Positions 1 through 23,120 of a DNA stretch of 64,000 nt are shown here, piece by piece (the first letter of the stretch is position 1; each line of letters starts with the position of its first letter). The DNA is taken from the NCBI GenBank assembly GCA_017451425.1, contig JAFSPP010000011.1, positions 26,510 to 90,509 of the forward strand. Direction: 5' to 3'. The stretch is from Clostridia bacterium (lineage in GTDB: Bacteria > Bacillota > Clostridia > Oscillospirales > Acutalibacteraceae). Made by a program: the position numbers and the translations under genes. The notes under the pieces are model-generated. The model was not told the origin of the DNA, ran no database searches, and was given only the letters and a program-made list of their open reading frames with translations.

Positions 1-239
1 AGGAAGGCAAAATGAAGGGAATACCTTCCGGTATAAGTTATACAAGAGAGGTGTTTCCCAAGAGAGTATTTGACAGTATAACTTGGGTTGATTTTGCCGG
101 TGAGAGATTTCCGATTCTCGCTGACTATAATTTATATCTCAGTAATCTGTATGGCGAAAATTATATGCAATTGCCGCCTGAAAATAATCGGGAAAAACAT
201 CTCTTGTACAAGTTGTCATTCCCGGAATCTTGTGATTAA
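1..239 (+). CDS. LicD-family (phosphocholine/phospho-alditol transferase) protein, C-terminal fragment; the 5' end lies outside the window
   Basis: The frame is open from the window edge to TAA at 237-239. The tail FPILADYNLYLSNLYGENYMQLPPENNREKH matches the LicD C-terminal Y-L-x3-Y-G-x-Y-M-x-L-P-P block as I recall it. Confidence 0.55.
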   Translation, partial: EGKMKGIPSGISYTREVFPKRVFDSITWVDFAGERFPILADYNLYLSNLYGENYMQLPPENNREKHLLYKLSFPESCD

Positions 240-251
240 TCAGGAATCATT

Positions 252-1508
252 ATGTCGGACAAAAAATTATCTTTTTCCCAAAACTCTGCCTATAACACAA
301 TTGGTATTTTAATCAACAATTTTTGTCTTTGGCTTACAACACTTGCTGTTGTACGGCTTAGTCCCGATTATGCAAATGCAGGTGTCTGGCAACTCTCTAT
401 AAGTGTCATAAATATTTTTTCGACTCTGGCAGCTTTTAATCTGATGCAATACTATGTTTCGGATGTTAACAATGAGCATCAGCTTGAAGATTATTTAGGC
501 ACTCAACTTATAACTTGCATCAGTGCGTCGCTGATATGCGTGGCATATTCAACCATCTGCGGATACAGAGGAGCACAGTTTTTCTGTATTTGCGCATACA
601 TGCTTGTTAGGGTGATAGAGGTTATTGCCGGATTCATGTTCGGAATCGATCAGCGTAATTACCGTATGGACTTTGTAGGAATATCATACGCGCTGCGCGG
701 CATACTTGAGTTGGTTCTGTTCTCGCTTGTGCTCTATACGACGAAGAACATTGTCTTTGCTGTTCTTTCTATGGCGATTGCAGCATTGACACTCCTTGTT
801 TTCTATGATATTCCAAATGCAAAACGCTTTGGAAAAATAAGCGTTTCTATTTCAGGGGAGAAGGTAAAATCGATAGTATTGAAATGTACTCGTTCAGTTC
901 TTGCTATTTCAATATTCATTGCCGTTTCAACAATACCGAGACAGTTCCTTGAAAAAATGTATAATTCCGAAGCGATAGGCTATTATTCAACAATTGCTGC
1001 GCCTATAGTTGTTATACAGGTGATAGTTATAAATGTATTTTTGCCTTTGCTTCGCGATGTTGCTGAGTACTATAAAAACGGCAATTTTGAAAAATTGAAA
1101 ACAATTGCTTTGAAAATAATTGCCACCCTCATAGGACTTGCGGTTTTGGGAAATCTAGGAGCGGTGGTCTTGGGAAAGCCGGTATATGGTCTGCTTTACG
1201 GACAGGGCATAAGGGATTATTGCTATCTCATTTATGCTGTTATAGGTTGTGTAATACTTTATGCTGCCTGCTGGGCCTGCTGGACTACACTCATTGCCAT
1301 CAGAAAGACCAATCTTATGATTTGGTTTTCCGCGATTTCACTTTTGACTGTAATTGTTTTCGGACGACCTATGATTAACCATTTCGGATTAAACGGTGTA
1401 AGTTTTGTTACCATAATTGCTTACGGCATTTATCTGGTCCTAAGTGTATTTTTTATTCTGTACAATGTGAAAAAACAAAAGGAAAGCTTCAATGGAACAG
1501 GAGACTAA
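252..1508 (+). CDS. Wzx-like polysaccharide/oligosaccharide flippase (MOP superfamily), polytopic membrane protein
   Basis: 418 aa and almost entirely hydrophobic helices (about 12 TM). The size and layout are typical of 'polysaccharide biosynthesis protein' flippases. Its 3' end overlaps the next gene by 17 nt. Confidence 0.5.
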   Translation: MSDKKLSFSQNSAYNTIGILINNFCLWLTTLAVVRLSPDYANAGVWQLSISVINIFSTLAAFNLMQYYVSDVNNEHQLEDYLGTQLITCISASLICVAYSTICGYRGAQFFCICAYMLVRVIEVIAGFMFGIDQRNYRMDFVGISYALRGILELVLFSLVLYTTKNIVFAVLSMAIAALTLLVFYDIPNAKRFGKISVSISGEKVKSIVLKCTRSVLAISIFIAVSTIPRQFLEKMYNSEAIGYYSTIAAPIVVIQVIVINVFLPLLRDVAEYYKNGNFEKLKTIALKIIATLIGLAVLGNLGAVVLGKPVYGLLYGQGIRDYCYLIYAVIGCVILYAACWACWTTLIAIRKTNLMIWFSAISLLTVIVFGRPMINHFGLNGVSFVTIIAYGIYLVLSVFFILYNVKKQKESFNGTGD

Positions 1509-3594
1509 GCGCAGACAACTTTACAGGGAAATAATGATTCTGCTTATCATCATGATGATAGGCACTCTTTTACGTCTGCCTATAGGTAATTTTTCTGATG
1601 CAGATGTAAAAATGCTTAATGATCCGGATTCTTATTATTACGCCCGCAAAGCTGTGGAATACTATAACCAACCTGTTTCGGATTGGTCACTTTTCTCAAG
1701 TCGTGCTGACGATCCGTTAATGACTGCAAATCATATTGACGATACTGAACCTACCCCTATGCTTATGCCGATTATTGCAGCGCTGATTTGTAAGATTTTC
1801 AGTTTTCTCTCAATTGATTATGTTATCTATTATGGCATGACTTTATTTTCCGTGCTGGCCGCGATTCCCGTGTTCCTTTTTATAAAGAGTCATTCAACAT
1901 CATTCGGTGGTTTCTTGGGCGCTGCACTTACAGTTCTGTCGTTTTCCTATTTTATTCACACAAAATACGGATACTTTGATACTGACGGCATGATTCTGGT
2001 TATCGCATTGTCATTTATGCTGTCGCATATTGAGTTTCTGATACAGCCGGATAAAAAACAAAAAATAACATTTGCAGTGCTTAGCATCATATTTCTCGTC
2101 CTGTTTTCCTTAACCTGGAATATGTACTTTGTGTATGCTGCAATTGCACTTATTTTGCTCGCGGTAATTACGGTATATAAGATTATCCGAAAAGAGAAAG
2201 AAAACTATTCGATTGTCGCGATATATTCTGTTTGTGTGTTGCTGATTTGTTTCGGCATAAGCAGGAAACATATTGTTTCAATGTTTTTCAGCATTGTATC
2301 AAAGCCTGAAACTGTCGGGTGGCCTTTACCGGGCAAGTTCATAAGTGAACTTTCAGTACCTTCATTGATTTCTGATGGCCCGAATACGGGATTTATCATC
2401 GCAAATACCGGAATACTAAATTTTTCCGGCGGTTATGCCTTGTTTTTTGCGCTTCTGATCTCTATTGCTCTATTTATTTATGAACTCGTGCAGAAATGTA
2501 TAAAACAAAATGCAACATGTGAATACAACTTTTCTCTGGCAATAACGTTGATTGTCTGGTTGATTATATCGTTTTTACTTACCTTGAGGGGAATAAGATA
2601 TGTTCAGCTCTTTGTGCTTCCGTTAAGCGTTTTTGTTGCCTACAGTTTTGCCGTTGTAATAAAGGAATTCGGCAAAAAGAGCCTGACCGGTTTAAAAAAA
2701 GACTTCCTTGTAATAATAATTGCTGCGCTAACTTTTGGTGGGTTGATACTTGTAAATCTTTATGTTGCTGTGGCCATCACTTTAGCAATTACGTTCGTTG
2801 GCCTTTTTGAGCGAAAAGTAGCCATTAAATACGGTGTATATATGCTGTTATTATCACTGTTCTCAGCCTTGATATGCAATTGCTATTATGTAACCATCAC
2901 TACTAAACGTTATGTAGACGATGATTTGTGCGAGGTAACGGAATATCTGGCTTACAATTCACCTGAAAACAGTATGGTTGTTTCCTGGTGGGATTACGGA
3001 TACTACTTTGAATATGCTGCGCAAAGGCAAGTGGCTGCTGATGGAGGTACTTTCAGTGGCGAAGCGTTTTATTGGCTGGCAAACATATTTGTGACAGATA
3101 ATCCGCAGCTTTCAAAAGGCATATGCAATATGTTGGCAGGGGGAAGTATTGATGCTTCTGAACTTTCCGGAGAATATGCCGGTTCTGCAGATGCCGGAGC
3201 GCAGATGCTTAAAGATATCCTGGTTATGAATAAATATGACGCGGCTGCATGTCTTAAAGAAAAGCACGGTTTGAATGAGGATGAAATAGATAAACTGATA
3301 AGTCGCTCGCATCCTTCTGAAACAAAACCGGTTTACATAGTGCTTTCAGATAAAATGATGTGTGATTCGTCCATCATTGCATATTACGGACTTTGGAATT
3401 TCAAAGATGATATAATACTGAGTTTTGATGATGACTTTGATTATAAAAAGGATACAAGTTACTATCCTGCGGAAATCAGGGATTCAATTATGCTGAAACT
3501 ATATTTCGGCGATTTGCCGGATGGATTTTCAGAAGTGTTTTCGAATGAAACTTTTAAGATTTTTGCTTTGGACACAAAACTTGCAGGTGAATGA
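1492..3594 (+). CDS. GT-C fold glycosyltransferase resembling STT3/AglB/PglB oligosaccharyltransferases
   Basis: 700 aa, with a many-TM N-terminal region and a soluble C-terminal domain of about 200 aa. A literal WWDYG motif lies at nt 2986-3000. The acidic loop motif NDPDSYYYAR (nt 1621-1641) follows TM1, where the STT3-family catalytic DxD/EL1 motif sits. Confidence 0.6.
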   Translation: MEQETKRRQLYREIMILLIIMMIGTLLRLPIGNFSDADVKMLNDPDSYYYARKAVEYYNQPVSDWSLFSSRADDPLMTANHIDDTEPTPMLMPIIAALICKIFSFLSIDYVIYYGMTLFSVLAAIPVFLFIKSHSTSFGGFLGAALTVLSFSYFIHTKYGYFDTDGMILVIALSFMLSHIEFLIQPDKKQKITFAVLSIIFLVLFSLTWNMYFVYAAIALILLAVITVYKIIRKEKENYSIVAIYSVCVLLICFGISRKHIVSMFFSIVSKPETVGWPLPGKFISELSVPSLISDGPNTGFIIANTGILNFSGGYALFFALLISIALFIYELVQKCIKQNATCEYNFSLAITLIVWLIISFLLTLRGIRYVQLFVLPLSVFVAYSFAVVIKEFGKKSLTGLKKDFLVIIIAALTFGGLILVNLYVAVAITLAITFVGLFERKVAIKYGVYMLLLSLFSALICNCYYVTITTKRYVDDDLCEVTEYLAYNSPENSMVVSWWDYGYYFEYAAQRQVAADGGTFSGEAFYWLANIFVTDNPQLSKGICNMLAGGSIDASELSGEYAGSADAGAQMLKDILVMNKYDAAACLKEKHGLNEDEIDKLISRSHPSETKPVYIVLSDKMMCDSSIIAYYGLWNFKDDIILSFDDDFDYKKDTSYYPAEIRDSIMLKLYFGDLPDGFSEVFSNETFKIFALDTKLAGE

Positions 3595-4871
3595 CAATAA
3601 TGAGTAAAACTGACGGTCTGATTCTAAACAGAATTTTTGCTATGCCCGATGAAAAACTTATCAGGTTTTGTTTTGCTGCCGTGATTATCTGGATAATCTC
3701 ACCTATAGCGGCTCTGCTCTCAAATCTGTTGGGAATTGACGGGTATAATTTTTGCGGTGTCTGGCTGACATTTTTGTATGTTTCCGGAGCCCTGGGCCTT
3801 ATTTTCGGCGGACTGTTTCTTTTCAAAATGTATTCGTTTTCAGACGCGGAACTCAGGGCTAAACTGATGCTGTCAGAACCACTTATATTAGTCGGAACGG
3901 TCTTTTTATGGGCTGTGTTCTGCACGCTGTTCGCAGGTGAAAAAACGATAGCCATTTACGGATATGAAAAGTTTCATGATAATCTGTTTGTCTATTTGTT
4001 TTATGGCGGTATGATTACTGCAGGAATTGCGGTAAAGAATTCTGAAAAGTATCTTTTGAAATCTGCAGAGGCTTTTTTATGTGTTGCCGCATCTTTGTCG
4101 TTTGTTTCGCTTGTAAATAACGGTGTTACTAATAAACTTTGCAGAAATTCCCTTACGGAAACCGATGGGCATGAGGCTGTGTTTTTTGATACTGAACATT
4201 TTGCCATGTACCTTGTTATGGCAATTATTGTTTGCGCATTTCTGGTTTTGCGGCTTTCAAAAACCGGTGGGCGGATTATTGTTTTATTTGCTCTTGGTCT
4301 GATGGTTGCCGCTTTGGCTTTTACTGGCAGTCTTGCAGGGCTCATTGCACTGGCTTTGGTTTCATTATTTACAATTCTGCGGTATAACAAACTGCCGGCA
4401 AGCAGTTTAAAAGTTCTGCTTTTGGAATTGTCAGTATGTCTTGTTGTATATATACTGATTGTGTCGGTATTTAAGGTCGTTCCCGCATTTCCCGAGAATA
4501 TGCTGGTGTTTTGGCGTAACACTCTTAAAAAGGTCGGAGAAAATGCAGTTGTAGGTATCGGACCGCAGAATACATTGGGATATGCTTATAATGTGTATCT
4601 GAAAATCTGCCTTTATCTCGGTGTGCCGGGATTATTGCTTTATCTTGCGGCCTTCATTACTGCGGCACGAGAACTTATTTCTCAAAATATGAAAATGCCG
4701 CTTTATGCTGTTGCGGCGGTTATGACGGCAATCGGATATGTGATTTTTGCCTTTTTCGGTTCAACAATGTTTTATACCGCACCATATTTCTATATTGTTA
4801 TTGGCATTATCTTCGGAAAATGCCTGGAACCATTAGGAAAAACGGTAAAAGTGAATTGTGACAAAAATTGA
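3591..4871 (+). CDS. Polytopic membrane protein, O-antigen ligase/polymerase-like (Wzy_C-like)
   Basis: 426 aa with about 10-12 TM helices. The late segment GIGPQNTLGYAYNVYLKICLYLGVPGLLLYL resembles the Wzy_C block (G-x-G...H-N-x-Y-L...E-x-G), but the His and Glu are replaced. An ATGA start/stop overlap links it to the upstream gene. Confidence 0.4.
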   Translation: MTIMSKTDGLILNRIFAMPDEKLIRFCFAAVIIWIISPIAALLSNLLGIDGYNFCGVWLTFLYVSGALGLIFGGLFLFKMYSFSDAELRAKLMLSEPLILVGTVFLWAVFCTLFAGEKTIAIYGYEKFHDNLFVYLFYGGMITAGIAVKNSEKYLLKSAEAFLCVAASLSFVSLVNNGVTNKLCRNSLTETDGHEAVFFDTEHFAMYLVMAIIVCAFLVLRLSKTGGRIIVLFALGLMVAALAFTGSLAGLIALALVSLFTILRYNKLPASSLKVLLLELSVCLVVYILIVSVFKVVPAFPENMLVFWRNTLKKVGENAVVGIGPQNTLGYAYNVYLKICLYLGVPGLLLYLAAFITAARELISQNMKMPLYAVAAVMTAIGYVIFAFFGSTMFYTAPYFYIVIGIIFGKCLEPLGKTVKVNCDKN

Positions 4872-4880
4872 AAAAAATAC

Positions 4881-4909
4881 TTGAAATCTTTTTATATATA
4901 TTGTATTAT
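4881..4909 (+). promoter_or_regulatory. Putative sigma-A promoter for the pilin gene
   Basis: TTGAAA (4881-4886), a 17-nt spacer, then TATTAT (4904-4909). It lies about 135 nt upstream of the pilin start. Confidence 0.4.
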
Positions 4910-5043
4910 TTTTTTGATGCCAAAGCACATTTTGGTGTTGTTTAAGGACTTTAGCTTGTGAGGCACAGCACGAGCACTTAAAATAAAGGCATTGTTTAAA
5001 TTTCGTTAAAACAATATTTTTATTTTGAAGGGAGTTTTTTCAA

Positions 5044-5424
5044 ATGAGAAAGCTTAACAAAAAGGGTTTCACACTCGTTGAAATCGTAATCGTAATCGTT
5101 ATCATCGCTATTCTTGCTGCTATGCTTGTTCCCGCTCTTACACAGTGGATCAAGAAGTCTAAGATTAAGACTTTCACATCTGCTTGCGCAACAATCAAGA
5201 CAGCTGTTTGGGCTCAGGCTGCTGAGTCTTATGGCACAGATGGTACCGTAAAGGTTGACTGGTCAACAGTTTCTGCTGACGTTGGTAAGGAAGTTACTAA
5301 TGGTACAGGCGGCGTTTATCAGGTAACATCTTTCAACTTCCAGAACGATAACATCACCGTTACAGATAAGGCCTTCCAGGGCGTATGGACCGGTGATACT
5401 TGGAACGTTACTGAGAAGAGCTAA
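5044..5424 (+). CDS. pilA: Type IV (major) pilin with a prepilin N-terminal cleavage/methylation signal
   Basis: The N-terminus MRKLNKKG|FTLVEIVIVIVIIAILAAMLVP has a class III signal peptide: Gly-1, Phe+1, Glu+5 and a hydrophobic helix. RBS GAAGGGAG lies upstream and a strong terminator lies downstream. Confidence 0.85.
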   Translation: MRKLNKKGFTLVEIVIVIVIIAILAAMLVPALTQWIKKSKIKTFTSACATIKTAVWAQAAESYGTDGTVKVDWSTVSADVGKEVTNGTGGVYQVTSFNFQNDNITVTDKAFQGVWTGDTWNVTEKS

Positions 5425-5458
5425 TTTAGCTTTAACGTTTTAACCTAAAAAACTTTTT

Positions 5459-5498
5459 GAGCCTCGTGCTATTGTGCCAACAGCGCGAGGCTCTTTTA
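5459..5498 (+). terminator. Rho-independent terminator after the pilin gene
   Basis: GAGCCTCG(TGC) at 5459-5469 pairs with (GCG)CGAGGCTC at 5483-5493, followed by TTTT. Confidence 0.6.
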
Positions 5499-5542
5499 AG
5501 TAAGAAGTGACTTTTGTCACAGTGCTGAAAAGGGGATAAACA

Positions 5543-6376
5543 ATGCCTGAAAAAGTCGCTGTAGGTCTGTTTTTGTTCCTGCTCTTTATGTTCGGAGCAT
5601 GCATAGGCAGTTTCTGTAATGTTGTTGCCATGCGCGTGCCGCTCAAAGAGAGCTTTACAAAAGGCAGGTCTCATTGTCCGAAGTGTAAGCATGATCTTAA
5701 TGCTTTGGACCTCATACCTTTTTTCAGTTGGATATTCTTACGCGGCAAGTGCCGTTATTGTAAAGAGAAGATCTCATTCCGGTATCCGTTTACGGAACTG
5801 GTGGGAGGTCTTGCCGCACTGTTTTCACTGTGGCAGCTGGGCGTTACTGTTAATGCTCTGGTTCTTTTTTATATTATTATGGTACTTGTAACCTTATCAA
5901 TGATTGATTTGGAGACCATGGAAATACCAGACGGTTTCCATATTGCAATCCTTGTGGCTGCAATTCTCAGCTATTGGTTTGGTCCGACATTTGGGATTAT
6001 GGATCCCGGTATTGTTTCCCGTGTAATAGGTTTCTTCGTTGTAAGTGTGCCTATGTATATTTTGGCAATGCTTACCGGAGGCTTCGGCGGGGGAGACATT
6101 AAACTTATGGCCGTTGCAGGCCTTCTGCTTGGCTGGAAAGCAACTCTCGTTGCATTTATGGTCGGTATATTTGCGGCAGCTTTTTACTGCATATATATTG
6201 TCATTTATGCTGCGGTTGCTGTTGCAAGAAAGAAAGCAGATTCTTTCAAGGATGGAATGCATTCTGCCATGAAAAGGCAGTTTGCGTTTGGACCTTATCT
6301 GAGTGTGGGTATTGTTGTTGCGTATCTGTACTCAGAACAACTTATTTCGTTTTATTGGGGAATGTTTCTGAAGTAA
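5543..6376 (+). CDS. pilD: Prepilin peptidase / N-methyltransferase (A24 family)
   Basis: Contains CPKC...CRYC zinc-knuckle-like cysteines, the segment LIPFFSWIFLRGKCRYCKEKISFRYPFTEL, and the two catalytic Asp contexts (DLETMEIPDG and GGGDIKLM). Confidence 0.9.
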   Translation: MPEKVAVGLFLFLLFMFGACIGSFCNVVAMRVPLKESFTKGRSHCPKCKHDLNALDLIPFFSWIFLRGKCRYCKEKISFRYPFTELVGGLAALFSLWQLGVTVNALVLFYIIMVLVTLSMIDLETMEIPDGFHIAILVAAILSYWFGPTFGIMDPGIVSRVIGFFVVSVPMYILAMLTGGFGGGDIKLMAVAGLLLGWKATLVAFMVGIFAAAFYCIYIVIYAAVAVARKKADSFKDGMHSAMKRQFAFGPYLSVGIVVAYLYSEQLISFYWGMFLK

Positions 6377-6524: not shown

Positions 6525-7739
6525 GTGCCCGTATACAGTTACAATGCCGTAACTCTTGATGGCAAAAAGAAGAGCGGCACTCTCGAGGCAGACAACCCTC
6601 AGAAACTTGCGGAACGTCTCCGTGACATGGACCTCTACGTTTCGGATTTCAAGGTCAAGGGCGGATCAAAGACTCTGACTAAGTCTAAACTTAAAGCAAC
6701 AGACCTCTCCGATATGTGCCGTCAGATTGGTACGATGGTAGGTTCCGGTGTCGTAATCGCACGTGCGGTTGATATTATCCGCAGCCGTCAGGGTATCAAC
6801 CCGAAAATCAAGGAGATATACGACGGCCTTTATAATTCACTCAGACAGGGTATGTCTCTCTCTGAGGCGATGGCAGATCAGGGTAATACTTTCCCGAAGA
6901 TGCTCATCAACATGATTATTGCCGGTGAGTCTTCCGGTACCATGGACCAGACTCTTATGAGAATGGCTGAGCACTATGACAAGGAAGAGCGTCTGAACTC
7001 GCAGATTAAGAGTGCCACAACTTATCCGAAGATTTTGATTGTAATTATCGTTGCGGTAATTATCATCCTCTTCGCTGTTGTACTTCCTACATTCTTCGAA
7101 ACATACAAGGAAATGGATATGGAACTTCCGACTGTAACTAAGATTATGGTTGGTCTTTCCGATTTCATTACAAAGAAGTGGTATATTTACATTCCGGTTG
7201 TTGTTGCTATATTCTTCGGTTGGCGTATTGCCAATGCAAATCCGGATTTCGTTCTTTGGAAGGATACAACTAAGGTTCACCTTCCCAAGATAGGTCCTCT
7301 TATGAGAATTATCTACACAGCCCGTTTTGCAAGAACAATTGCTTCACTTTATGCTTCGGGTATTCCGCTTGTTGACTGTCTTACAATCGCTGCCGGTACA
7401 GTAGGCAATACCTACATTGAAAAACAGGTTGTTGAATGTATTAAGGATGTTAAAGGCGGTGCGGCAGTTTCGGAAGTCATACGTACTATTGACGGTTTTG
7501 ACTCAAAACTTTCTGCGACTATCCTCATCGGTGAGGAGACCGGTAAGCTGGATGAGATGCTTCTTTCTACAGCTGACCAGTTCGAGTACGAATCTGAGCA
7601 GGCCACAGGACGTCTTACAGCTCTGATTGAGCCGGTAATGCTCGTTGTAATGGCCGGTCTTGTCGGTTCAGTACTTATCGGCGTTATCGTACCCATGTAC
7701 GGTATGTATGAGGGTATCGACGCCAACGCCGGCGTTTAA
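6525..7739 (+). CDS. pilC: Type IV pilus platform protein (GspF/PilC family)
   Basis: 404 aa. It has the duplicated T2SS-F architecture (two cytoplasmic helical domains and 3 TM) and a typical C-terminal EPVMLVVMAGLVG segment. GTG start after AAAGGAG. Confidence 0.9.
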   Translation: MPVYSYNAVTLDGKKKSGTLEADNPQKLAERLRDMDLYVSDFKVKGGSKTLTKSKLKATDLSDMCRQIGTMVGSGVVIARAVDIIRSRQGINPKIKEIYDGLYNSLRQGMSLSEAMADQGNTFPKMLINMIIAGESSGTMDQTLMRMAEHYDKEERLNSQIKSATTYPKILIVIIVAVIIILFAVVLPTFFETYKEMDMELPTVTKIMVGLSDFITKKWYIYIPVVVAIFFGWRIANANPDFVLWKDTTKVHLPKIGPLMRIIYTARFARTIASLYASGIPLVDCLTIAAGTVGNTYIEKQVVECIKDVKGGAAVSEVIRTIDGFDSKLSATILIGEETGKLDEMLLSTADQFEYESEQATGRLTALIEPVMLVVMAGLVGSVLIGVIVPMYGMYEGIDANAGV

Positions 7740-7766: not shown

Positions 7767-8660
7767 ATGATTACTTCCGTTTATGTTTCAAACGAAAAAA
7801 TACAGGTACTCACAGGCGAGAAGGATAAAAAGAATCGCCTGGATGTAAAAGCGGTTATGTACGCTACGCTTCCCGAAAAGGCCATGGCTAACGGTGTCAT
7901 TACCGACGAGCTTGGCGTGAAGGAAGCCGTTCAGAAGATCTGGGATAAGTACAATCTTCCGAAGAAGGACGTACATCTCGTTATTGACTCCGGCACAATC
8001 CTCAACAAGAAGGTTGCTTGCCCGGTAGTTCCGAAGGAGTCACTTCCGAATATCGTAAAAGATGAATTCAAAGATGTTGAAGGTTTTGCAAACTTCCTTT
8101 TCGACTACACTGTAATTGAAGACGGCCGCAATGGTGAGCCTCTGCTCTTCGCTAACGCTGTAGGTAAGGAACTTGTTTCTGCTTACGTTCGCGTTTTCAA
8201 CGGCCTTGGAATTTCAATCTCGAGAATCAACACAGGCATAAATGCTGAGATGGCTCTCATCGCAGCAAACCCTGCAACAGCTCATGACACACAGATCGTG
8301 GTCAACCTTGACCCGACAAGCCTTACATCAGTTCTTTACATCGATGGTAAGTACAGCTTCGCAAGCCGCAGCCGTCTCATCGAGGCCAGAGGTTCTGAGG
8401 CTTCACGTATGGAAATCGTTCGTGCACTTTCTTCACTCATTCAGTTCGCACGTTCCGAGAACTCCCAGAAGCCCGTTAAGGCAGTATACGTTTGCGGTAT
8501 GGTAGAGTCCGAAGCAGACCTTTGCCCGAAGATTTCGGCAATGCTCGGCTGCCCGGTATCAACTCTTCCCGCATGTGACAACATTACTTGCACTAAAGAC
8601 AGGAATAAGGCAGCTTTCCTTATGGCTGACTACACCTATGCTTTAGGCAATATGCTTTAA
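7767..8660 (+). CDS. pilM: PilM-like actin-fold pilus assembly protein
   Basis: 297 aa and soluble. The position directly after pilC and the overall pattern (N-terminal beta-strand start, ...LPxxxxxNGVIxD..., ...VxLVIDSG...) are typical of PilM. Confidence 0.65.
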   Translation: MITSVYVSNEKIQVLTGEKDKKNRLDVKAVMYATLPEKAMANGVITDELGVKEAVQKIWDKYNLPKKDVHLVIDSGTILNKKVACPVVPKESLPNIVKDEFKDVEGFANFLFDYTVIEDGRNGEPLLFANAVGKELVSAYVRVFNGLGISISRINTGINAEMALIAANPATAHDTQIVVNLDPTSLTSVLYIDGKYSFASRSRLIEARGSEASRMEIVRALSSLIQFARSENSQKPVKAVYVCGMVESEADLCPKISAMLGCPVSTLPACDNITCTKDRNKAAFLMADYTYALGNML

Positions 8661-8678: not shown

Positions 8679-9398
8679 ATGGCTTTTAAGAAAAAAGATG
8701 CCAATCCGATGATGATTGACGGCAATACATCCGCTCCGGCTCCTGCTGCTCCTGCAGCAAAGGAGAAAAAGTCCAAGGTTAAATATCTTGAACCCAACGA
8801 AATGAACTTCTACGAGCAGTACAAGGTCGTAGTTGAAGGCAAGAAGAAGGACGTTGACCTCGCTAAGATTCTCAAGCCCCTGATTGCCGTACTCATAGTT
8901 GTTCTTGCAGTATTTGTTATCCTTGAAGCTATTCTTATCGGATTCAAGGCTAAGAATAAGTCACTTGATAAGTACATCAATGACCCGAACAACATCGCTT
9001 CCTACAACGAGGCGCTTGCTGTTAAGGAAGAGACAGAGACTGTTAATGCTGCCAAAGCAAACATGGAATCTCTTCTTACTGCAATTGATACATATCCGAA
9101 CGTCGGCAAGGACTTCTTTGCAAAAGTTGCTTCCGTAGCCACAAAGAACAATGTAACAATCACCAACTATTCATTCGCAAATGAGAACGGATGGCTGAAC
9201 CTGGCATGTAACGCAAGTGCTACCAAGGACATTTCTCAGTTCGTTCGTGATCTTGAAACACTCGGTCTCTTCGGTAATGTTAATTACACCGGATTCCAGA
9301 GTAATGGTGATGCCACAGGCGGCTATGGTTACTCAGTTGACTGCACTTGCCTTGGCGATCCTAACTATTCACAGGCCGCTGCAGGCACTGAAGGCTAA
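8679..9398 (+). CDS. PilN-like bitopic pilus assembly protein
   Basis: A short cytoplasmic N-terminus, one TM (ILKPLIAVLIVVLAVFVILEAILIGF), then a coiled-coil and a globular periplasm-side domain. It follows pilM. Assigned by synteny and topology only. Confidence 0.45.
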   Translation: MAFKKKDANPMMIDGNTSAPAPAAPAAKEKKSKVKYLEPNEMNFYEQYKVVVEGKKKDVDLAKILKPLIAVLIVVLAVFVILEAILIGFKAKNKSLDKYINDPNNIASYNEALAVKEETETVNAAKANMESLLTAIDTYPNVGKDFFAKVASVATKNNVTITNYSFANENGWLNLACNASATKDISQFVRDLETLGLFGNVNYTGFQSNGDATGGYGYSVDCTCLGDPNYSQAAAGTEG

Positions 9399-9415: not shown

Positions 9416-10003
9416 ATGACAGAAAAAGATAAGAAAACCTTAATTATTGCTGCTATTGCTCTCCTTATATTCGGTATCGCTTTCCTCGGTATCAGACCCG
9501 CAATAACAAATCTGAAAGAGGAAAGAGCAAAGAACGTAGAGCTTTCAGCACAGAAACAGACAATGCAGACAGAGATTAACTCTCTCCCTACATACAAGAC
9601 AAATCTTGAAACAGCGAAGACGAACTACAATGCAACGGCTTCCCGCGCATTTGCAGATCTTCCGAATGACAAGATTCACGACGTAGTTATTGACGAAATC
9701 GTTACTCCGCTCGGCCTTGATGTAAAAGCATTCCGCATTAACAGCATTGAACCTCTCGGTGTAAACAATTATGTTGTACCTTCAGCTGATGCAGGCGCTT
9801 CACCGGCTCTTGTTGCAGGCACAACAGACCTTGCTTATATTACTGTTGATGTAGTAGGCACACAGGAGCAGATAATTGCGCTTGTTGACAAACTTAATGC
9901 GACAGAGGGCACATACCTCTCAAACATTTCGTTCTCAACGGTTGCAGACAATGCTACGGTATCAGTTCCGTTCTATATGGTTCTTTCGGAGACATTTGAA
10001 TAA
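9416..10003 (+). CDS. PilO-like bitopic pilus assembly protein
   Basis: An N-terminal TM (LIIAAIALLIFGIAFLGI), a coiled-coil (NLKEERAKNVELSAQKQTMQTEINSL), then a C-terminal domain. Synteny is pilM-N-O. Confidence 0.5.
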   Translation: MTEKDKKTLIIAAIALLIFGIAFLGIRPAITNLKEERAKNVELSAQKQTMQTEINSLPTYKTNLETAKTNYNATASRAFADLPNDKIHDVVIDEIVTPLGLDVKAFRINSIEPLGVNNYVVPSADAGASPALVAGTTDLAYITVDVVGTQEQIIALVDKLNATEGTYLSNISFSTVADNATVSVPFYMVLSETFE

Positions 10004-10269: not shown

Positions 10270-11961
10270 ATGAGAGTATTGGGAAATAAAAAGGGTTCGG
10301 CACTGCTCTGGTGCATACTCCTGATTATTATTCTCACAATTCTTTTGGGTAGTGTACTTACGGCTACTTATGCCTATTACAACTACACCATGCGTACTGT
10401 TAAGAGACAGCAGGCCTATTTTACTGCTCGTTCTGCAGTGTCCATGCTTCTTGAGGAACTCACCTCTGAAGAGCAGGTAGCTACAAACGGCGAATATCTG
10501 GAGTCGTCCATTTCAGTGCTTCCTTCAAGAAAGGGCGCTGATCATGCCGTAACCGTAAGCGATTTCGGTTTCGGTGAAAAGATGGGTTCGGCTGAAGCTA
10601 CTCTTGTACGTAACGATGACGACGAAATTAATATTGAAGTAACGGCATATTATCCCGATAACATAAACGGTGAGAAGTATGTTATGAAGGCTACTGTTTG
10701 CCGCCAGCCGCTTTATTTCGGCGGTATTGCTGTTAAGCATCTTTCGCTTGACGGCAAGCTTACTCTTGGCGAAAACACAGACCTTTACTGGAACAATACG
10801 GATATTTTCAACACAGCCGGTAATGGTTCCTCTTTTAAGAATAATGGCGGCACTCTTTCCGTTAACGGTAACCTCGTTACAAAAGGAGATGCCACAATTA
10901 CGGCCGGTAATGTTGTTGCAGGCAGAAACTTCTATGGAACAGCCACATTCTCCGGTGATTCTCTTCATTCAAAGAAAATCTGGTCTCCGACAGAATATAT
11001 TATTTCTAACAAGACATTAAGAGTTGATGATGCTGAGAACACGGAGTACACGACAAACGCTATTAATACTCTCAAAAATATTACTAACTATACCATTAAA
11101 TATTGTAACAGCAGAGGCACAAGTGCTTTCGGTCCGAATCCCGTGCTTGCAGATATCTTAGGTGTTGATGTCGGCCAGCTTATGTCCGGTATTCCAATCA
11201 TCGGTAACATTATTTCTGATACAAATGATCAGTTTATGAAGGTTTCCGACTCAAATAACAGCGCTTTGTCCATCAGATACATTAAGCTTCTTTCAACATA
11301 CAAAGCAATTTCTGATGCGCTTGATAACGCTCCTTTGGTCCTGCAGCCAATGATTAATATTATTCGCGCCTTACCTACAACGCAGGCGGCAGCCAGTCTT
11401 ATGAGAGATTGCTACGATGCTCCTTGGATTGATTTCTCTTCATCTGATGAAGGCAACAGATCTGATGAGGTCGTACCTCTTACTTATCTCTTTGTTGACA
11501 GCAAACTCGGCGTCCGTGTTCAGTACGGCAGAGATCCGGGCAAAGCCAGTTTTATAGGTCAGATTACTGATAATATTTCTAATAATGTTGGCTCATTTAT
11601 CAACAGCGTTTTTGATATTCGCAATAAGCCCAGTTATCTTGTTGCTTATATGGAACCCAATTCTTATATCGAACTCGGCTATGGTTGCGGCAAGGGACAT
11701 GTTAACCCGAAGACAGGTGTTACAGAAAACAACAGCCGAAACAGAGGCACGCCACAGAACCTTGTTTTCCTTTATTCACTATATGGTGGAGATAACACAA
11801 CGGTTATCCTTCACGACGGCGTAACGGTTATAGGTGAGATTATCTGTGACAATCTTATTATCGAAGGCGATGCCAAGATAATTTACTCATCAATAAACGG
11901 CGGTCAGATAGCTAAACAGAAGATTGCTGAGTATTGGGCCGTATCAAATTATTCGGATTAA
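10270..11961 (+). CDS. PilX_N-domain pilus-associated protein, large (563 aa)
   Basis: The N-terminus KKGSALLWCILLIIILTILLGSVLT...RQQAYFTARSAV matches the PilX N-terminal pattern (GSAL, hydrophobic helix, QAFxAAEAG). It has no Glu+5 or canonical G|F cleavage site. The remainder is Asn/Gly/Thr-rich. Confidence 0.55.
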   Translation: MRVLGNKKGSALLWCILLIIILTILLGSVLTATYAYYNYTMRTVKRQQAYFTARSAVSMLLEELTSEEQVATNGEYLESSISVLPSRKGADHAVTVSDFGFGEKMGSAEATLVRNDDDEINIEVTAYYPDNINGEKYVMKATVCRQPLYFGGIAVKHLSLDGKLTLGENTDLYWNNTDIFNTAGNGSSFKNNGGTLSVNGNLVTKGDATITAGNVVAGRNFYGTATFSGDSLHSKKIWSPTEYIISNKTLRVDDAENTEYTTNAINTLKNITNYTIKYCNSRGTSAFGPNPVLADILGVDVGQLMSGIPIIGNIISDTNDQFMKVSDSNNSALSIRYIKLLSTYKAISDALDNAPLVLQPMINIIRALPTTQAAASLMRDCYDAPWIDFSSSDEGNRSDEVVPLTYLFVDSKLGVRVQYGRDPGKASFIGQITDNISNNVGSFINSVFDIRNKPSYLVAYMEPNSYIELGYGCGKGHVNPKTGVTENNSRNRGTPQNLVFLYSLYGGDNTTVILHDGVTVIGEIICDNLIIEGDAKIIYSSINGGQIAKQKIAEYWAVSNYSD

Positions 11962-11973
11962 GGGGGCTGCTTT

Positions 11974-12381
11974 ATGAAGAAACTTGATAATAAAGGTTTG
12001 ACTCTTGTTGAGCTTATACTCGCAGCAGTTATCCTTGCAATTTCCGGACTTATGCTTGCCACGACTTTCACATCTGCAATGAGAATTATGAGTCGTGCAA
12101 TACTTTACAAGAACGTCAGTGCAACAGCTGCAGAGACAGTTGAACTTGCCGAGGAACAGGAACCGGTCGAAAACTTTGTTTACGATGTTGACAGTTCCGA
12201 AAAGAACGGCACATTGACTATCACTTACAAGAAAGACAATGTTGATAGTACAACGACAATGAGCGGTCAGTACTATTTTGCAGAGGTCTCAAAAGATGAC
12301 GAGAGGGTCGGCCTGACTTACAAGGAGTTCCTTCCGAGTAACTTCAGTTACGACATTCCTGCGGCCCCTGTAGGGGATTAA
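11974..12381 (+). CDS. Minor type IV pilin / pseudopilin
   Basis: The N-terminus MKKLDNKG|LTLVELILAAVILAISGLMLA is a prepilin cleavage/methylation motif with Glu+5. Confidence 0.75.
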   Translation: MKKLDNKGLTLVELILAAVILAISGLMLATTFTSAMRIMSRAILYKNVSATAAETVELAEEQEPVENFVYDVDSSEKNGTLTITYKKDNVDSTTTMSGQYYFAEVSKDDERVGLTYKEFLPSNFSYDIPAAPVGD

Positions 12382-12405
12382 GTATACAGAAAGGACGAGT
12401 GACTT

Positions 12406-14928
12406 ATGAATATTTTTGAAATAAGAAAAAATAAACTCGGTATGACACTTGTGGAAATGGTTCTTTCCCTTGTAATCCTCGGTATACTTATGACTTCTAC
12501 TATGGGTATGGTAATATCGAGTAATCAGATTTTCATTTCAACAAGTAAAGCCGCAATTGACAAGCAGGTTGGTAACTACTCTTTCGATTTCATCGAAAAG
12601 GTTCTCCGTTACACAACACACATGTCAATCTACAATGAGGGCACTTCACCCAATGATTCCAATCTTCAGTCTCTCTCATTGAATAAGACTGATAATACCA
12701 ATGATTCCGGCATACTTATGTTTAAGCGCGCTGAGGATAACGATCCTTACTCTCTTTACGATAATGGTTTCTACGGCAATAGAACAATCCAGTATTCTGT
12801 TCATAAGGTCGGTAAAAAGAGCCAGCACGTAAAACTTAAAGTAACTGTCTTCAGAGAGGGCAGAGCGGTTTATTCGAGAGAATCCGTTGTCAAGTGCTTG
12901 AACCTTAACCTTGTTGCAATAGGTGACGGTGCAAATCCGATTGTTGATAAGTCATCTGCCGATGCAGTAAACCAGACAATCACATTCTCCGTTGATGAAA
13001 AGCTTCTTTCCGGCGGTAAGAATGCTTACTCACTTGAGTTCAAGGTTTCCGAGTTCATGGGTAAGTACAACAAGATTCAGAAAGCTTATGTTGCCGATAT
13101 AGGTAAGGCTTATACAAAGTATATCAGCGGTAACTATGATGCTGAGGAAAACCCCGGTATCCGCGGTACAACTGATGCTTACAACGGCAGAATTGAAGCC
13201 GAGACATACGCAGCCAGAATGAATGCCTATACAAAGATTGTATTCGGCGACGGAGCGACACCTACAAACTATGATCCCGATCGTATTGAAAACTGTGTAA
13301 ACCTTCGTGCTTACTATCAGCAGGAAATCAATGATCTCCTTAAATTTGATCTTAAATCTTCAAATGCCGCAGGTTTTACCAATGGTAACTTTACCAACAA
13401 TATTATCGGTACAACATCTTATAAGCTTCATAATGGTGATGCCTTCTACGGCGTAGTTGCGACCAAGGAAGAGATGTACTTTGGTTTCATGCTCAACCAT
13501 TATGACAAGAATAACGACGGCACTATTTCAAAGGCTGAATATCCTCAGTTTGAGGGCGACTCCTTCTTCAAGGGCACATCCATGGATTCTTATTTAAAGA
13601 ATACCAGCGGCAACCAGATGGTTATCATGTGCTACTTCAAGGACAATGTTGCCAATGATAACTACAAGGGCCTTGTAGCAAAGACAACCCAGGATGTTTA
13701 CTCCTTCAACGGATCTGTTTCGCACTCTGCTGCAGCGAATGGATCAGCAACTAAACCCGGAGCATCAACAATCCAAGATTACAGCGGAAATAACAGTGAT
13801 GTACCTTCCGGTACAAGTTATCTTAATACCTCCAAGGTATATATCTACTATTCAGATAACAATTACAGAGCCGGTGGCACAAATCTCAACTATGACCGTT
13901 CTGGTAATATTATTTCCGGATACACATATCCCGGCACGGCAATTGAAAATTATCTCAAGAATACACTCGGTGCAAAGAATGCTACTCCTTCTTTTAATGT
14001 AGCATCACATATTTCAGGTTCGGATCATAACGATACTAAGAATTGCTCTTATACCGCACCGACCGACCTTACAGAAGGCTGGTATTATTCCAAGGTTCCG
14101 TATTACAGTGCAGGTGCTGCTAATACTAAATATTGTTTCTGTCTCTTCTATCTCCAGGCTATTGATCAGACAGAAGAGGCTGACGGCCAGGAAATAGTAC
14201 TGAATCCGAATAAAATTGCCATCTTCAGAGGCGGTAAAATTAATTACTCGTTTGCCAACAGCTCGGGTGTATTAGAAACTATTTACTATAAACTGGGTTC
14301 ATTCACTTATGACCAGGCGCAGTTTACAGTAAGCCACGAAGCACAGGGCGGCAACACCACTTCCACTGACTTCCTTGAGTACACAGCACACCAGTATGTT
14401 GACTATGCACTCTACGGAACAGACTGGAACTCCTGGTTCAATGCGAACCCTTCAGGTCTTATTAACCAGCTTGCGAATGTTGTTACGAATTTCGTTAACA
14501 CAATTCGTGGTAAGGCCATAAATAAGAACATAACCAGCATAAGTACGGCAAATGCAGTTCAGTCGCTTGGTAACATCGGACAGCACAACATTTCTACTGC
14601 GATGGACAATCAGGCTGCATCTTATAACCTTGCTTGGTGTGTTTACAGCCCGAAGCGCGGCACATGGTACTATCTGCCCGCCAGATCAACAAGACTTTCA
14701 GGTCTTGCTTCTTCCTTCTCGTTCTCATCAAAGAAGGACGCACCGACACCGCTTGATGCTGACCTTGATGACGGTTCCTGGAGATCCTCCAGCGCAATGG
14801 TAAGTGATATCGAGATGCGTAAACTGTCAAGCAGCGGTCTCTTTGGACTTGTTGATACGACCTCTGATGTACTTTGGGTAGCACTTCCTACAGGTAACAC
14901 AATCGATCTTGATTCCGTTACCGGTTAA
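12406..14928 (+). CDS. Giant modular pilin-like protein (840 aa), candidate tip protein or adhesin
   Basis: The N-terminus ...RKNKLG|MTLVEMVLSLVILGILM has a prepilin-type signal with Glu+5, followed by about 800 aa of Asn/Ser/Thr/Tyr-rich extracellular sequence. This includes a canonical EF-hand-like loop DKNNDGTISKAE at nt 13504-13539. Confidence 0.7.
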   Translation: MNIFEIRKNKLGMTLVEMVLSLVILGILMTSTMGMVISSNQIFISTSKAAIDKQVGNYSFDFIEKVLRYTTHMSIYNEGTSPNDSNLQSLSLNKTDNTNDSGILMFKRAEDNDPYSLYDNGFYGNRTIQYSVHKVGKKSQHVKLKVTVFREGRAVYSRESVVKCLNLNLVAIGDGANPIVDKSSADAVNQTITFSVDEKLLSGGKNAYSLEFKVSEFMGKYNKIQKAYVADIGKAYTKYISGNYDAEENPGIRGTTDAYNGRIEAETYAARMNAYTKIVFGDGATPTNYDPDRIENCVNLRAYYQQEINDLLKFDLKSSNAAGFTNGNFTNNIIGTTSYKLHNGDAFYGVVATKEEMYFGFMLNHYDKNNDGTISKAEYPQFEGDSFFKGTSMDSYLKNTSGNQMVIMCYFKDNVANDNYKGLVAKTTQDVYSFNGSVSHSAAANGSATKPGASTIQDYSGNNSDVPSGTSYLNTSKVYIYYSDNNYRAGGTNLNYDRSGNIISGYTYPGTAIENYLKNTLGAKNATPSFNVASHISGSDHNDTKNCSYTAPTDLTEGWYYSKVPYYSAGAANTKYCFCLFYLQAIDQTEEADGQEIVLNPNKIAIFRGGKINYSFANSSGVLETIYYKLGSFTYDQAQFTVSHEAQGGNTTSTDFLEYTAHQYVDYALYGTDWNSWFNANPSGLINQLANVVTNFVNTIRGKAINKNITSISTANAVQSLGNIGQHNISTAMDNQAASYNLAWCVYSPKRGTWYYLPARSTRLSGLASSFSFSSKKDAPTPLDADLDDGSWRSSSAMVSDIEMRKLSSSGLFGLVDTTSDVLWVALPTGNTIDLDSVTG

Positions 14929-15909: not shown

Positions 15910-16187
15910 ATAATAAATAAAGGCGATGACGAAGACGGTTTTGAGGACCTCTTTCAGAGAGCAGACGGTTGGTGCGAGTCTGCAGTGGGAATCAAGTTGA
16001 CCTATCACTTCAGCAGCTGAGCCCTTGAACACATTTGTTAGTAGGGGACTACGTGAAAGCTACGTCAGTGCGAAGGGGTTGATGGACCCTGAGGGGTAAC
16101 GGGCAATAGCCAATCGTTACAATTTGAGTGGTACCGCGGGTAACTTGTTTTATTCGTCTCAAAGCATTTGCTTTGAGGCGTTTTTTT
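15910..16187 (+). promoter_or_regulatory. T-box riboswitch leader (tRNA-sensing transcription attenuator), probable Ile (AUC) specifier
   Basis: GA/K-turn GCGAUGA (15923-15929). AG bulge AGAGAG (15956-15961). Distal loop GGUUGGUGCGA (15967-15977). Specifier context CCU-AUC-A-CUUC (codon at 16004-16006), closed by GAAG at 15931-15934. T-box sequence AAUUUGAGUGGUACCGCGGG (16121-16140). Terminator CGTCTCAAAGCA/TGCTTTGAGGCG plus T7 (16155-16187). The terminator's 5' arm CTCAAA can pair instead with the T-box TTTGAG. Confidence 0.85.
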
Positions 16188-16258
16188 ATTCCCCTCATCT
16201 GCCCCTTTGGGGCACCTTCTCCCCCGGGAGAAGGCATAACAGGAAAGGAATGGTTGTT

Positions 16259-23003: not shown

Positions 23004-23010
23004 ATTAGTG

Positions 23011-23120
23011 TACTTTGTAACTGACGGATCAGTGGGGTTTACCACATGGGAGCAAAGTAAAGTAATATGTCGACCGTCTGGGCAGTCCCTCAGTACACGA
23101 GGGACTGCCTTGTTTATTTT
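23011..23120 (+). promoter_or_regulatory. ZTP (pfl-motif) riboswitch with an intrinsic-terminator expression platform
   Basis: P1 is ACTTTG/CAAAGT. Conserved ACUGACGG, P2 GUGG/CCAC and GGGAGC are present. After a linker comes CGACCGUCUGGGCA. The pseudoknot GACGG:CCGUC covaries relative to the consensus GGCGG:CCGCC. The terminator GGCAGTCCCTC/GAGGGACTGCC (23081-23109) plus a T-run shares GGCA with the aptamer's 3' end. Confidence 0.8.

Follow-up and report, generated by a model that had tools for sequence, protein, structure and literature searches.

A 64-kb stretch of DNA (contig JAFSPP010000011.1; hereafter the window) from a monoderm-type, Clostridia-like bacterium of gut or rumen type carries, immediately upstream of a type IV pilus operon, a gene for a 700-aa protein (1492-3594) that by sequence and predicted structure belongs to the STT3/PglB/AglB family of oligosaccharyltransferases (OSTs). 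The gene belongs to a trio, formed by a pilin gene, the STT3 gene and a gene for a WaaL-like membrane protein, which is conserved in the related loci that could be read. We consider it reasonably probable, from sequence comparisons and structure models, that the window contains the 3' half of a protein glycosylation module dedicated to pilins and joined to the pilus operon, and that the STT3 enzyme would act on Asn residues of pilins. To our knowledge, N-glycosylation by an OST has been described, among bacteria, only in Campylobacterota and a small number of other Gram-negative lineages. In the literature that we searched, an STT3-type enzyme is described neither from Firmicutes nor next to a pilin gene, which is an absence in that literature and not proof.

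Results

Linkage of the STT3 gene to pilin genes

The STT3 protein of the window was the query for all the identities to relatives given here. Its nearest full-length relatives (P0014-P0019) form a clade of proteins of about 690 aa, 32-37% identical to the query, all from metagenome assemblies and each representing a separate 50%-identity cluster. Seven lineages of this clade, L013, L016, L023, L024, L026, L027 and the window lineage (L011/L014), were the only members with readable flanks. The initial annotation had proposed a survey of homologues for linkage to pil genes, and a pilin gene was found upstream of the STT3 gene in all seven lineages (Table 1), at identities of 32-37% to the query and of 86-100% inside the window lineage. 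The pilin gene directly adjoins the STT3 gene except in the window lineage and in L013, where glycan genes intervene. A homologue of ORF (open reading frame) 3591-4871, of 414-448 aa, lies directly downstream in the six lineages in which this position is readable, the contig of L024 ending inside the downstream gene. At 32% identity, L027 still reproduces the whole pilus operon of the window gene for gene. The genes found to the left in L014 thus place the glycan cassette between two pilin genes.

When class III signal peptides were sought with a regular expression, every locus of the ~690-aa clade with enough flanking sequence showed a pilin, and none of 17 loci of more distant STT3 genes contained a prepilin motif. 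The WaaL-fold partner is specific to the pilin-linked clade.

Table 1. Gene order around the STT3 gene in relatives of the window (plain numbers are protein lengths in aa)
Locus	STT3 relative to the query	Gene order
L013	37% identical	NTP_transferase / pilin / GT2 / DUF2304 / Wzx / STT3 / 441 aa / pilin / PilD
L016	34% identical	pilin / STT3 / 448 aa / Wzy_C
L023	clade member	pilin / STT3 / 414 aa
L024	clade member	PBP / pilin / STT3 / ...
L026	clade member	YfhO / pilin / STT3 / 425 aa
L027	32% identical	pilin / STT3 / 434 aa / pilin / PilD / PilC / PilM / 258 / 194 / 556 / 133 / 834
L014	89% identical	pilin (130 aa) / GT2 (240 aa) / DUF2304 / GT2 (346 aa) / LicD / Wzx-like / STT3

Family, fold and catalytic residues of the STT3 protein

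The initial annotation had recognized the 700-aa protein by a literal WWDYG, which indeed lies at nt 2986-3000 (residues 499-503), and by a soluble C-terminal domain of about 200 aa, which corresponds to residues ~477-700 in our AlphaFold2 (AF2) model. The acidic loop NDPDSYYYAR, reported at nt 1621-1641, is also present, and its position is corrected here to 1618-1647. Searches with profile hidden Markov models (HMMs) placed the protein above the cut-offs of PF02516 (STT3; 68.6 bits, cut-off 24.5) and PF21436 (STT3-PglB_core; 47.2 bits, cut-off 23); the best matches are STT3 models and not those of ArnT, PMT or YfhO. The top NCBIfam models are PglB and archaeal STT3, each matched far under its equivalog level (NF050801, PglB, 50.7 bits against a cut-off of 1300; TIGR04154, archaeal AglB, 40.4 bits against 450), and a Pfam scan of the protein gave no match to the PglB C-terminal beta-barrel, PF18527. 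Since the Pfam cut-offs are passed and neither the NF050801 level nor PF18527 is reached, the sequence places the protein inside the STT3 family without making it an orthologue of PglB; the low TIGR04154 score likewise indicates that it is not an AglB orthologue.

Among proteins of the Protein Data Bank (PDB), the best phmmer match is C. lari PglB (E 5e-9), in an alignment that sets YGYFDTD on the GYYDTD of the PglB segment NRTMSGYYDTD and WWDYGY on WWDYGY. The AF2 model, built on 92 relatives, has a mean pLDDT of 94 and a pTM of 0.93. When it was compared with the PDB by Foldseek, the first match was PglB 6gxc (E 4e-15, TM-score 0.60), and ranks 1-19 were all N-OSTs (PglB, human STT3A/B, yeast Stt3 and AglB; E 4e-15 to 1.5e-9), with DPY19, ArnT, AftA, ALG and PMT below all of them. 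At the level of the fold, the structure prediction suggested in the initial annotation thus returned the N-OSTs as nearest neighbours.

Residue conservation was read from the 92-sequence alignment, and equivalence to PglB through two PglB-like rows of it. D46, D163, W209, E286, R369 and G503 are invariant (92/92), W500 is present in 90 and D165 in 89 of the relatives, and D517-G-G is nearly invariant. D46, D163, D165, E286, R369, W500 and G503 map, in that order, to PglB D56, D154, D156, E319, R375, W458 and G461. In the PglB-like sequence P0005, D46 aligns with the Asp of NDGY, E286 with TVKE and R369 with GLRF, and P0004 reads a literal SVSE at the position of E286. The dN/dS of the gene against the 89%-identical relative is 0.155, indicative of purifying selection. 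Because HMM, PDB and structure matches agree and these residues are conserved, we take the 700-aa protein to be a true member of the STT3 family with a complete predicted catalytic set. An insert of ~50 aa at residues ~395-445 (window ~2675-2825) forms two additional predicted transmembrane (TM) helices; it is found in the pilin-linked clade and in a Lachnospiraceae protein of 845 aa, and P0003 and P0004 are without it.

Sequons in the pilus proteins

The adjacent pilin contains three sequons, N86-G-T, N103-I-T and N121-V-T, where 1.1 are expected, none of them with an acidic residue at position -2. In the six extracellular pilus proteins of the window we counted 49 N-X-S/T motifs, compared with 27.7 +/- 4.6 in composition-preserving shuffles, whose maximum was 45 (0 of 5000 shuffles reached 49); the reversed motif occurs 29 times in the same proteins. 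The 563-aa, 135-aa and 840-aa proteins hold 12, 3 and 20 sequons. Sequon density is 2.0-2.9 per 100 aa in the pilus proteins and 0-0.6, about five-fold lower, in cytoplasmic proteins of the window. The downstream pilins of L013 and L027 have four and six sequons, and a C-terminal W-N-V-T is common to the window pilin and its L027 orthologue.

Two types of pilin C-terminus are found in these loci. The upstream pilins of L013, L014, L016, L023, L024, L026 and L027 end in DG[ST]xW[ST]Y[ED] or a close variant, and the downstream pilins have W-N-V-T at the aligned position (window 5395-5424). From the alignment, there may be a C-terminal glycosite beside a conserved Trp, occupied by Asn in one type of pilin and by Ser/Thr in its paralogue.

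The WaaL-fold partner

ORF 3591-4871 had been called Wzy_C-like in the initial annotation. The window protein has no Pfam match of its own, and three of six family members match Wzy_C under threshold (best E 4e-5). The label is sustained by the family profile, which aligns over its full length to a Pfam-positive Wzy_C paralogue (hhalign probability 100%, E 3e-41), and by the AF2 model (pLDDT 84), whose sole significant match in the PDB is WaaL 7tpg (Foldseek E 5e-5, TM-score 0.52). Remote database matches are all PF04932 'O-antigen ligase' proteins; the family profile had no match among PDB sequences. In the alignment, P-H-N of Wzy_C falls on A-Y333-N334 of the window protein, the His being kept in one of the six family members. 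The family has no invariant Arg, Lys or His, and GxGxxN is separated from (H)N by a shortened loop. The His of the 'HN' motif is essential in WaaL and PglL. Because a Tyr stands at this signature His and no basic residue is invariant, the sequence makes the protein a weak candidate for an O-oligosaccharyltransferase (O-OTase); the protein could act as a polymerase or as a second transferase, or else be an accessory subunit. An N-OST-like and an O-OST-like candidate had been proposed to occur together: both are present, as a conserved pair, and the second of them has lost much of its standing.

The genes might nevertheless divide the work in another way, with the WaaL-fold protein as the real O-OTase of the pilin, as are TfpO/PilO, PglL and PglS, and the STT3 protein as a general N-OST, or one for other surface proteins, that shares the glycan supply. 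This would fit the Wzy_C superfamily and WaaL fold of the protein, the position of its gene immediately upstream of pilA, the conservation of the protein in all pilin-linked loci, the Ser/Thr within the conserved C-terminus of the upstream pilins, and the genetic linkage of known pilin-specific O-OTases to their substrates (PMC12645811). We judge it unlikely, given the substituted His, the missing invariant basic residues, the shortened loop and the lack of a Pfam match, and given an STT3 gene that is equally tightly linked to pilins and has a complete catalytic set.

A 467-aa protein encoded upstream of the STT3 gene of a 786-aa clade (L028) was also compared, and is unrelated to either the Wzx-like or the WaaL-like protein.

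Glycan cassette and predicted donor

The LicD fragment noted earlier at the left edge of the window is confirmed by a Pfam LicD match (E 0.0015, model positions 183-227, the model end) and by 62% identity to residues 237-314 of the full-length LicD of L014 (120 bits; L014:7797-8744). The 418-aa protein described as a Wzx-like flippase gave no direct Pfam match, and its family profile none among PDB sequences; the assignment is carried by its L013 orthologue, 49% identical, which matches Polysacc_synt PF01943 at E 4.6e-7. The dN/dS of this gene is 0.11.

Genes of two relatives point to the nature of the donor. For the 240-aa family 2 glycosyltransferase (GT2) of L014 and its 223-aa counterpart in L013, the best scores are with polyprenyl-monophosphate glycosyltransferases, namely AglJ, PpgS, PgfS, ArnC and dolichyl phosphate (Dol-P) hexose transferase, with AglJ (2e-23) and PpgS (9e-23) at the top in NCBIfam and Dol-P-Man synthase and ArnC in the PDB. 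In both relatives the GT2 gene is followed by a DUF2304 gene, and two STT3 genes of other clades, P0004 and P0021, are also accompanied by GT2 and DUF2304 genes. GacJ, a member of the DUF2304 family, binds the GlcNAc-P-Und synthase GacI and makes it more active, as Rv3632 binds and activates PpgS; in the same system GacK is a Wzx-family flippase and GacL a GT-C enzyme (10.1101/180810). A GT-A C55-P-sugar synthase, a flippase and a GT-C enzyme constitute a general Gram-positive scheme of multi-component transmembrane glycosylation (PMC8035078). The GT-A synthase, DUF2304, flippase and GT-C genes are found in one locus in L014 and L013, the window itself holding the flippase candidate and the GT-C enzyme only. 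The L013 cassette is minimal, comprising besides the STT3 gene just a sugar-nucleotide enzyme, the flippase and a GT2 with its DUF2304 partner, and no initiating phosphoglycosyltransferase was present in any neighbourhood recovered. These two observations together suggest, by analogy with GacI/GacJ, a donor in which undecaprenyl monophosphate (Und-P) carries a mono- or short oligosaccharide. The initial annotation had proposed an en-bloc glycosylation system for the adjacent pilins; the linkage to pilins and the STT3 identity are in its favour, and the glycan genes point to a short glycan on Und-P and not to the classical pathway based on undecaprenyl diphosphate (Und-PP).

Since the order GT2-DUF2304-Wzx-GT-C is exactly that of GacI-GacJ-GacK-GacL, the STT3-like protein could be the GT-C part of a GacIJKL/GtrABC-type system, one that transfers a single sugar from Und-P-sugar to a wall polysaccharide or teichoic acid, or to Ser/Thr of a pilin as TfpW does. 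The single glycosyltransferase of the minimal L013 cassette and the variability of the WWD Asp in the clade would agree with such an enzyme. The protein scores as STT3, with ArnT and AftA far below the N-OSTs, it retains WWDYG and the Glu of external loop 5 (EL5) that are specific to N-OSTs, and its linkage to pilins in seven of seven lineages is unneeded by a wall-polymer enzyme. We therefore give this possibility as low a probability as that of a pilin O-OTase.

Sequence variation in the STT3 gene

The segment of the window at 2400-3050 (STT3 residues ~303-519) has ~80% nucleotide identity to L011/L014, between flanks of 95-100%, and the dS of the STT3 gene is 0.34-0.42, compared with 0.04-0.11 for the WaaL-like gene, the pilin and PilC. 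This pattern suggests intragenic recombination or allele exchange. It is very improbable that this mosaic segment, the low GC content (39%, against about 50% elsewhere in the window) and a TAA stop just before the DTD motif in L012 mark what is left of an archaeal or bacterial OST that was acquired horizontally and is now decaying or inactive, since the ORF of the window is intact with the low dN/dS given above, the 92 relatives show little or no variation at the catalytic residues, and the linkage to pilins (7/7) and to the downstream partner (6/6 readable) is kept at 32-37% identity.

Breadth of the STT3 branch

A word-indexed homologue search recovered four relatives only, and an exhaustive search 1589 cluster representatives at E < 1e-3, 83 of them at E < 1e-30. 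The clade profile scores other bacterial members of the branch at 200-440 bits, PglB-like proteins at 52-65 bits and archaeal AglB at 28-58 bits. An archaeal origin was considered and dropped, since PglB-like proteins and AglB score about equally poorly and no donor can be named. More distant STT3 relatives occur as standalone genes in Lachnospiraceae metagenome-assembled genomes (the 845-aa relatives), in a locus where a GT2/LicD/Wzx cassette is followed by a 1245-aa protein, and in another where the STT3 gene is followed by three GT2 genes and DUF2304. A 789-aa STT3 protein of the same bacterial branch (L010:669-6455 and the 72.9-kb contig of P0003) is flanked to one side by radical-SAM and PqqD genes with a 79-aa ORF and to the other by genes for an ABC exporter and NTP_transf_5, a layout that resembles a cluster for ribosomally synthesized and post-translationally modified peptides (RiPPs) and hints at peptide glycosylation. 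L018, L020 and L022, more distant members of the branch, carry two or three tandem STT3 paralogues per contig.

Gene organization of the window

The ORF map is as first annotated (Table 2), including the 17-nt overlap of the Wzx-like and STT3 ORFs (1492-1508), the ATGA overlap of the STT3 and WaaL-fold ORFs (3591-3594) and the 172 bp from the end of the latter to the pilin start at 5044. In the pilus operon the assignment is clear for the pilin, PilD, PilC and PilM and weak for PilN. No Walker motif of a PilB/PilT-type ATPase was found in the 64-kb window, and any assembly ATPase must be encoded elsewhere.

GC content is 39-40% across window positions 1-6000, which hold the glycosylation genes and the pilin, and 45-55% in the remainder. 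Right after the pilus operon and an S26 signal peptidase, a fusion of helix-turn-helix (HTH), cupin and AMP-binding (acyl-CoA synthetase-like) domains is encoded at 16124-18517. The sole Rfam match in the window, unrelated to glycosylation, is a ZMP/ZTP riboswitch at 23007-23090 on the plus strand (61 bits, gathering score 39), 5' of a purE/purF run.

Table 2. Features of the left part of the window
Feature	Position	Strand	Basis or remark
LicD-family phosphotransferase, C-terminal 78 aa, truncated at window edge	3..239	+	Pfam LicD, relative's LicD
418-aa polytopic membrane protein, candidate Wzx/MOP-type flippase for lipid-linked glycan	252..1508	+	orthologue Pfam match
700-aa STT3/PglB/AglB-family OST, predicted GT-C fold	1492..3594	+	Pfam, PDB, AF2/Foldseek
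Motif NDPDSYYYAR of external loop 1 (EL1)	1618..1647	+	D46 codon nt 1627-1629, equivalent of PglB D56
HTKYGYFDTD	1957..1986	+	D163/D165 = PglB D154/D156; H156 at PglB R147 position
E286, long external loop (residues 270-313)	2347..2349	+	equivalent of TIXE/SVSE Glu, PglB E319
R369	2596..2598	+	equivalent of PglB R375 (lipid-phosphate contact)
WWDYG, residues 499-503	2986..3000	+	start of soluble domain
M622-x-x-D625-x-x-x-I629, MI-type-like segment of soluble domain	3355..3378	+	clade alignment A4
426-aa divergent Wzy_C/WaaL-fold membrane protein, conserved partner of STT3 gene	3591..4871	+	hhalign, AF2/Foldseek
GIGPQNT...AYN motif of WaaL-fold protein	4554..4592	+	Y333 where Wzy_C proteins carry His
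Promoter-like TTGAAA-17-TATTAT, inside 172-bp gap 5' of pilin	4881..4909	+	consensus scan, 10/12 matches, pattern match only
126-aa type IV prepilin, proposed acceptor	5044..5424	+	Pfam N_methyl E 1.2e-8; cleavage after G8, then FTLVE
Prepilin peptidase PilD	5543..6376	+	Pfam A24_N_bact 115 bits, Peptidase_A24 57 bits
PilC platform protein	6525..7739	+	Pfam T2SSF 193 bits
PilM	7767..8660	+	PilM_2 27.1 bits
PilN-like	8679..9398	+	PilN E 8e-4, under its cut-off
PilO-position protein	9416..10003	+	gene order and size as in L027
563-aa protein, 135-aa minor pilin, 840-aa pilin-like protein	10270..14928	+	N_methyl matches for 135-aa and 840-aa; L027 orthologues of same sizes

Discussion

The reading that we favour, a glycosylation module dedicated to the pilins, can be set out as a pathway. 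A GT2 and DUF2304 pair of the GacI/GacJ type, seen in the 89%-identical relative and expected just past the left edge of the window, would load a sugar on Und-P at the cytoplasmic face, and a second GT2 and the LicD phosphotransferase would extend or decorate that sugar. The Wzx-like protein would flip the lipid-linked glycan to the outer face, where the STT3 enzyme would move it to the Asn of N-X-S/T in membrane-anchored prepilins or pilins before their assembly, the WaaL-fold protein being its presumed obligate partner. The first candidate acceptor would be the adjacent PilA, at N86, N103 and N121, in a manner resembling the action of archaeal AglB on type IV pilins and archaellins. The data show the family, fold and conserved catalytic residues of the STT3 protein, purifying selection on its gene, the gene trio and the excess of sequons; from these we infer the acceptor (a pilin Asn), the donor (Und-P rather than Und-PP) and the roles of the accessory genes.

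The closest characterized enzyme is PglB of C. lari and C. jejuni (GT66), the best match in both sequence and structure, which is also a single-subunit enzyme of ~700 aa, and the window protein has counterparts of its D56, D154/D156, E319, R375 and WWDYG, and a segment that may be of the MI rather than the DK type. The two differ in that identity is ~15%, the window protein is without the PglB beta-barrel and has His at the R147 position, and the sequons of the adjacent pilin are without Asp or Glu at -2. Furthermore, unlike PglB, the gene is found in a monoderm-type host and is tied to pilins instead of a general pgl locus, and its glycan genes point to Und-P and not to Und-PP.

With AglB the likeness lies in the predicted substrate and donor. 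Archaeal AglB N-glycosylates pilins and archaellins (PMC5131992), and S-layer proteins are further substrates. In both cases an STT3 enzyme works, or is here predicted to work, on type IV pilin-like proteins, and the best-scoring model for the first GT2 of the cassette is AglJ, the Dol-P hexosyltransferase by which the N-glycan of Haloferax is initiated. Euryarchaeota use monophosphate donors. The differences are the low score with the archaeal STT3 model (40 against 450) and the nature of AglB as a general OST which is not known to be encoded beside pilins.

Pilin-specific O-glycosylation offers two further comparisons. TfpW, which modifies group IV pilins of P. aeruginosa, is a GT-C arabinosyltransferase encoded beside pilA that uses a polyprenyl-monophosphate sugar donor. 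It shares with the window protein the GT-C fold and the position of its gene directly beside a pilin gene; it differs in having no homology to STT3, in attaching O-linked arabinofuranose to Ser/Thr and in coming from a diderm host. TfpO/PilO, TfpM, PglS and PglL resemble ORF 3591-4871 in their Wzy_C/WaaL fold and pilin-adjacent position (PMC12645811), whereas this ORF has Y333 in place of His, no invariant basic residue and a sub-threshold Pfam score, and is paired with an STT3 gene in every readable locus. Finally, the GacI/GacJ/GacK/GacL system has the same set of a GT2 Und-P-sugar synthase, a DUF2304 activator, a Wzx-family flippase (the GacK position) and a GT-C transferase; here the GT-C enzyme is of the STT3 family, the predicted acceptor is a pilin and not a wall polysaccharide, and the window lineage has an additional GT2 and LicD.

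Several observations weigh against a module that would N-glycosylate pilins at classical sequons. The first group concerns the acceptors. The upstream pilin of L027 has no sequon, and the sequon excess of PilN is not conserved (seven against one). An NTT site of the upstream pilins was tried as a conserved acceptor and rejected, being kept in only four of seven.

A second group concerns the enzyme itself. The Asp of WWD in PglB recognises the Ser/Thr at +2. Its counterpart D501 is present in 73 of the 92 relatives and replaced in 19, including three pilin-linked ones in which Gly or Asn takes its place (WWGRG, WWGYG and WWNIG). M622/D625/I629, the putative equivalent of the PglB MI motif, fits the MI template at its outer positions only; the middle residue is variable, the clade alignment A4 reading [MLI]-x-x-[D/N/I/A/V]-x-x-x-[IL]. 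Because the WWD Asp and this middle position vary in the clade, its acceptor recognition may deviate from the classical sequon. In addition, L012, which otherwise matches the window exactly over 700 nt, reads TAA instead of AAA just before YGYFDTD (L012:1065-1563; window ~1955-1965). This stop splits the STT3 gene into ORFs of 157 aa and 534 aa and represents a null allele of natural origin or else a mistake of the assembly.

The remaining points concern the glycan. The GT2 and DUF2304 genes lie outside the window and were seen in the relatives L014 and L013. The Wzx-like gene of the window is 93.5% identical to that of L014, unlike the neighbouring LicD, and because the LicD fragment is only 62% identical to LicD of L014, the upstream glycan genes of the window strain may be another allele set than those of L014. 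An initiating phosphoglycosyltransferase could also be encoded elsewhere, in which case the donor would be linked to Und-PP.

If the favoured reading holds, a still bolder description becomes possible, which we offer tentatively and would not ourselves expect to hold in full. The window would carry part of the first OST-dependent N-glycosylation system of Gram-positive-type bacteria, in which a pilin-dedicated STT3 enzyme uses a short glycan on Und-P, as euryarchaeal AglB does on Dol-P and unlike the known bacterial N-OSTs, and is obligately paired with a WaaL-fold protein that has diverged catalytically. The enzyme would stand for a large unexplored branch of STT3 proteins (the 83 clusters at E < 1e-30), which occurs also in RiPP-like clusters and as tandem paralogues. 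As far as we could find, the combination of an N-OST, the Gram-positive GT-A/flippase/GT-C scheme and a transferase gene tied to its pilin substrate is unreported.

The conserved trio provides a defined pair of acceptor and enzyme, and the hypothesis is therefore directly testable. If it is true, the enzyme would be a compact OST for glycoengineering, apparently without need for an acidic residue at -2, which may accept monophosphate donors. It would also extend N-OST biology to monoderm bacteria of the gut and rumen and reveal a convergence with the glycosylation of archaeal pilins and archaellins. The R. albus pilin GP25 is said to be a glycoprotein, and a module of this kind could explain how the type IV pilins of rumen Clostridia become glycoproteins.

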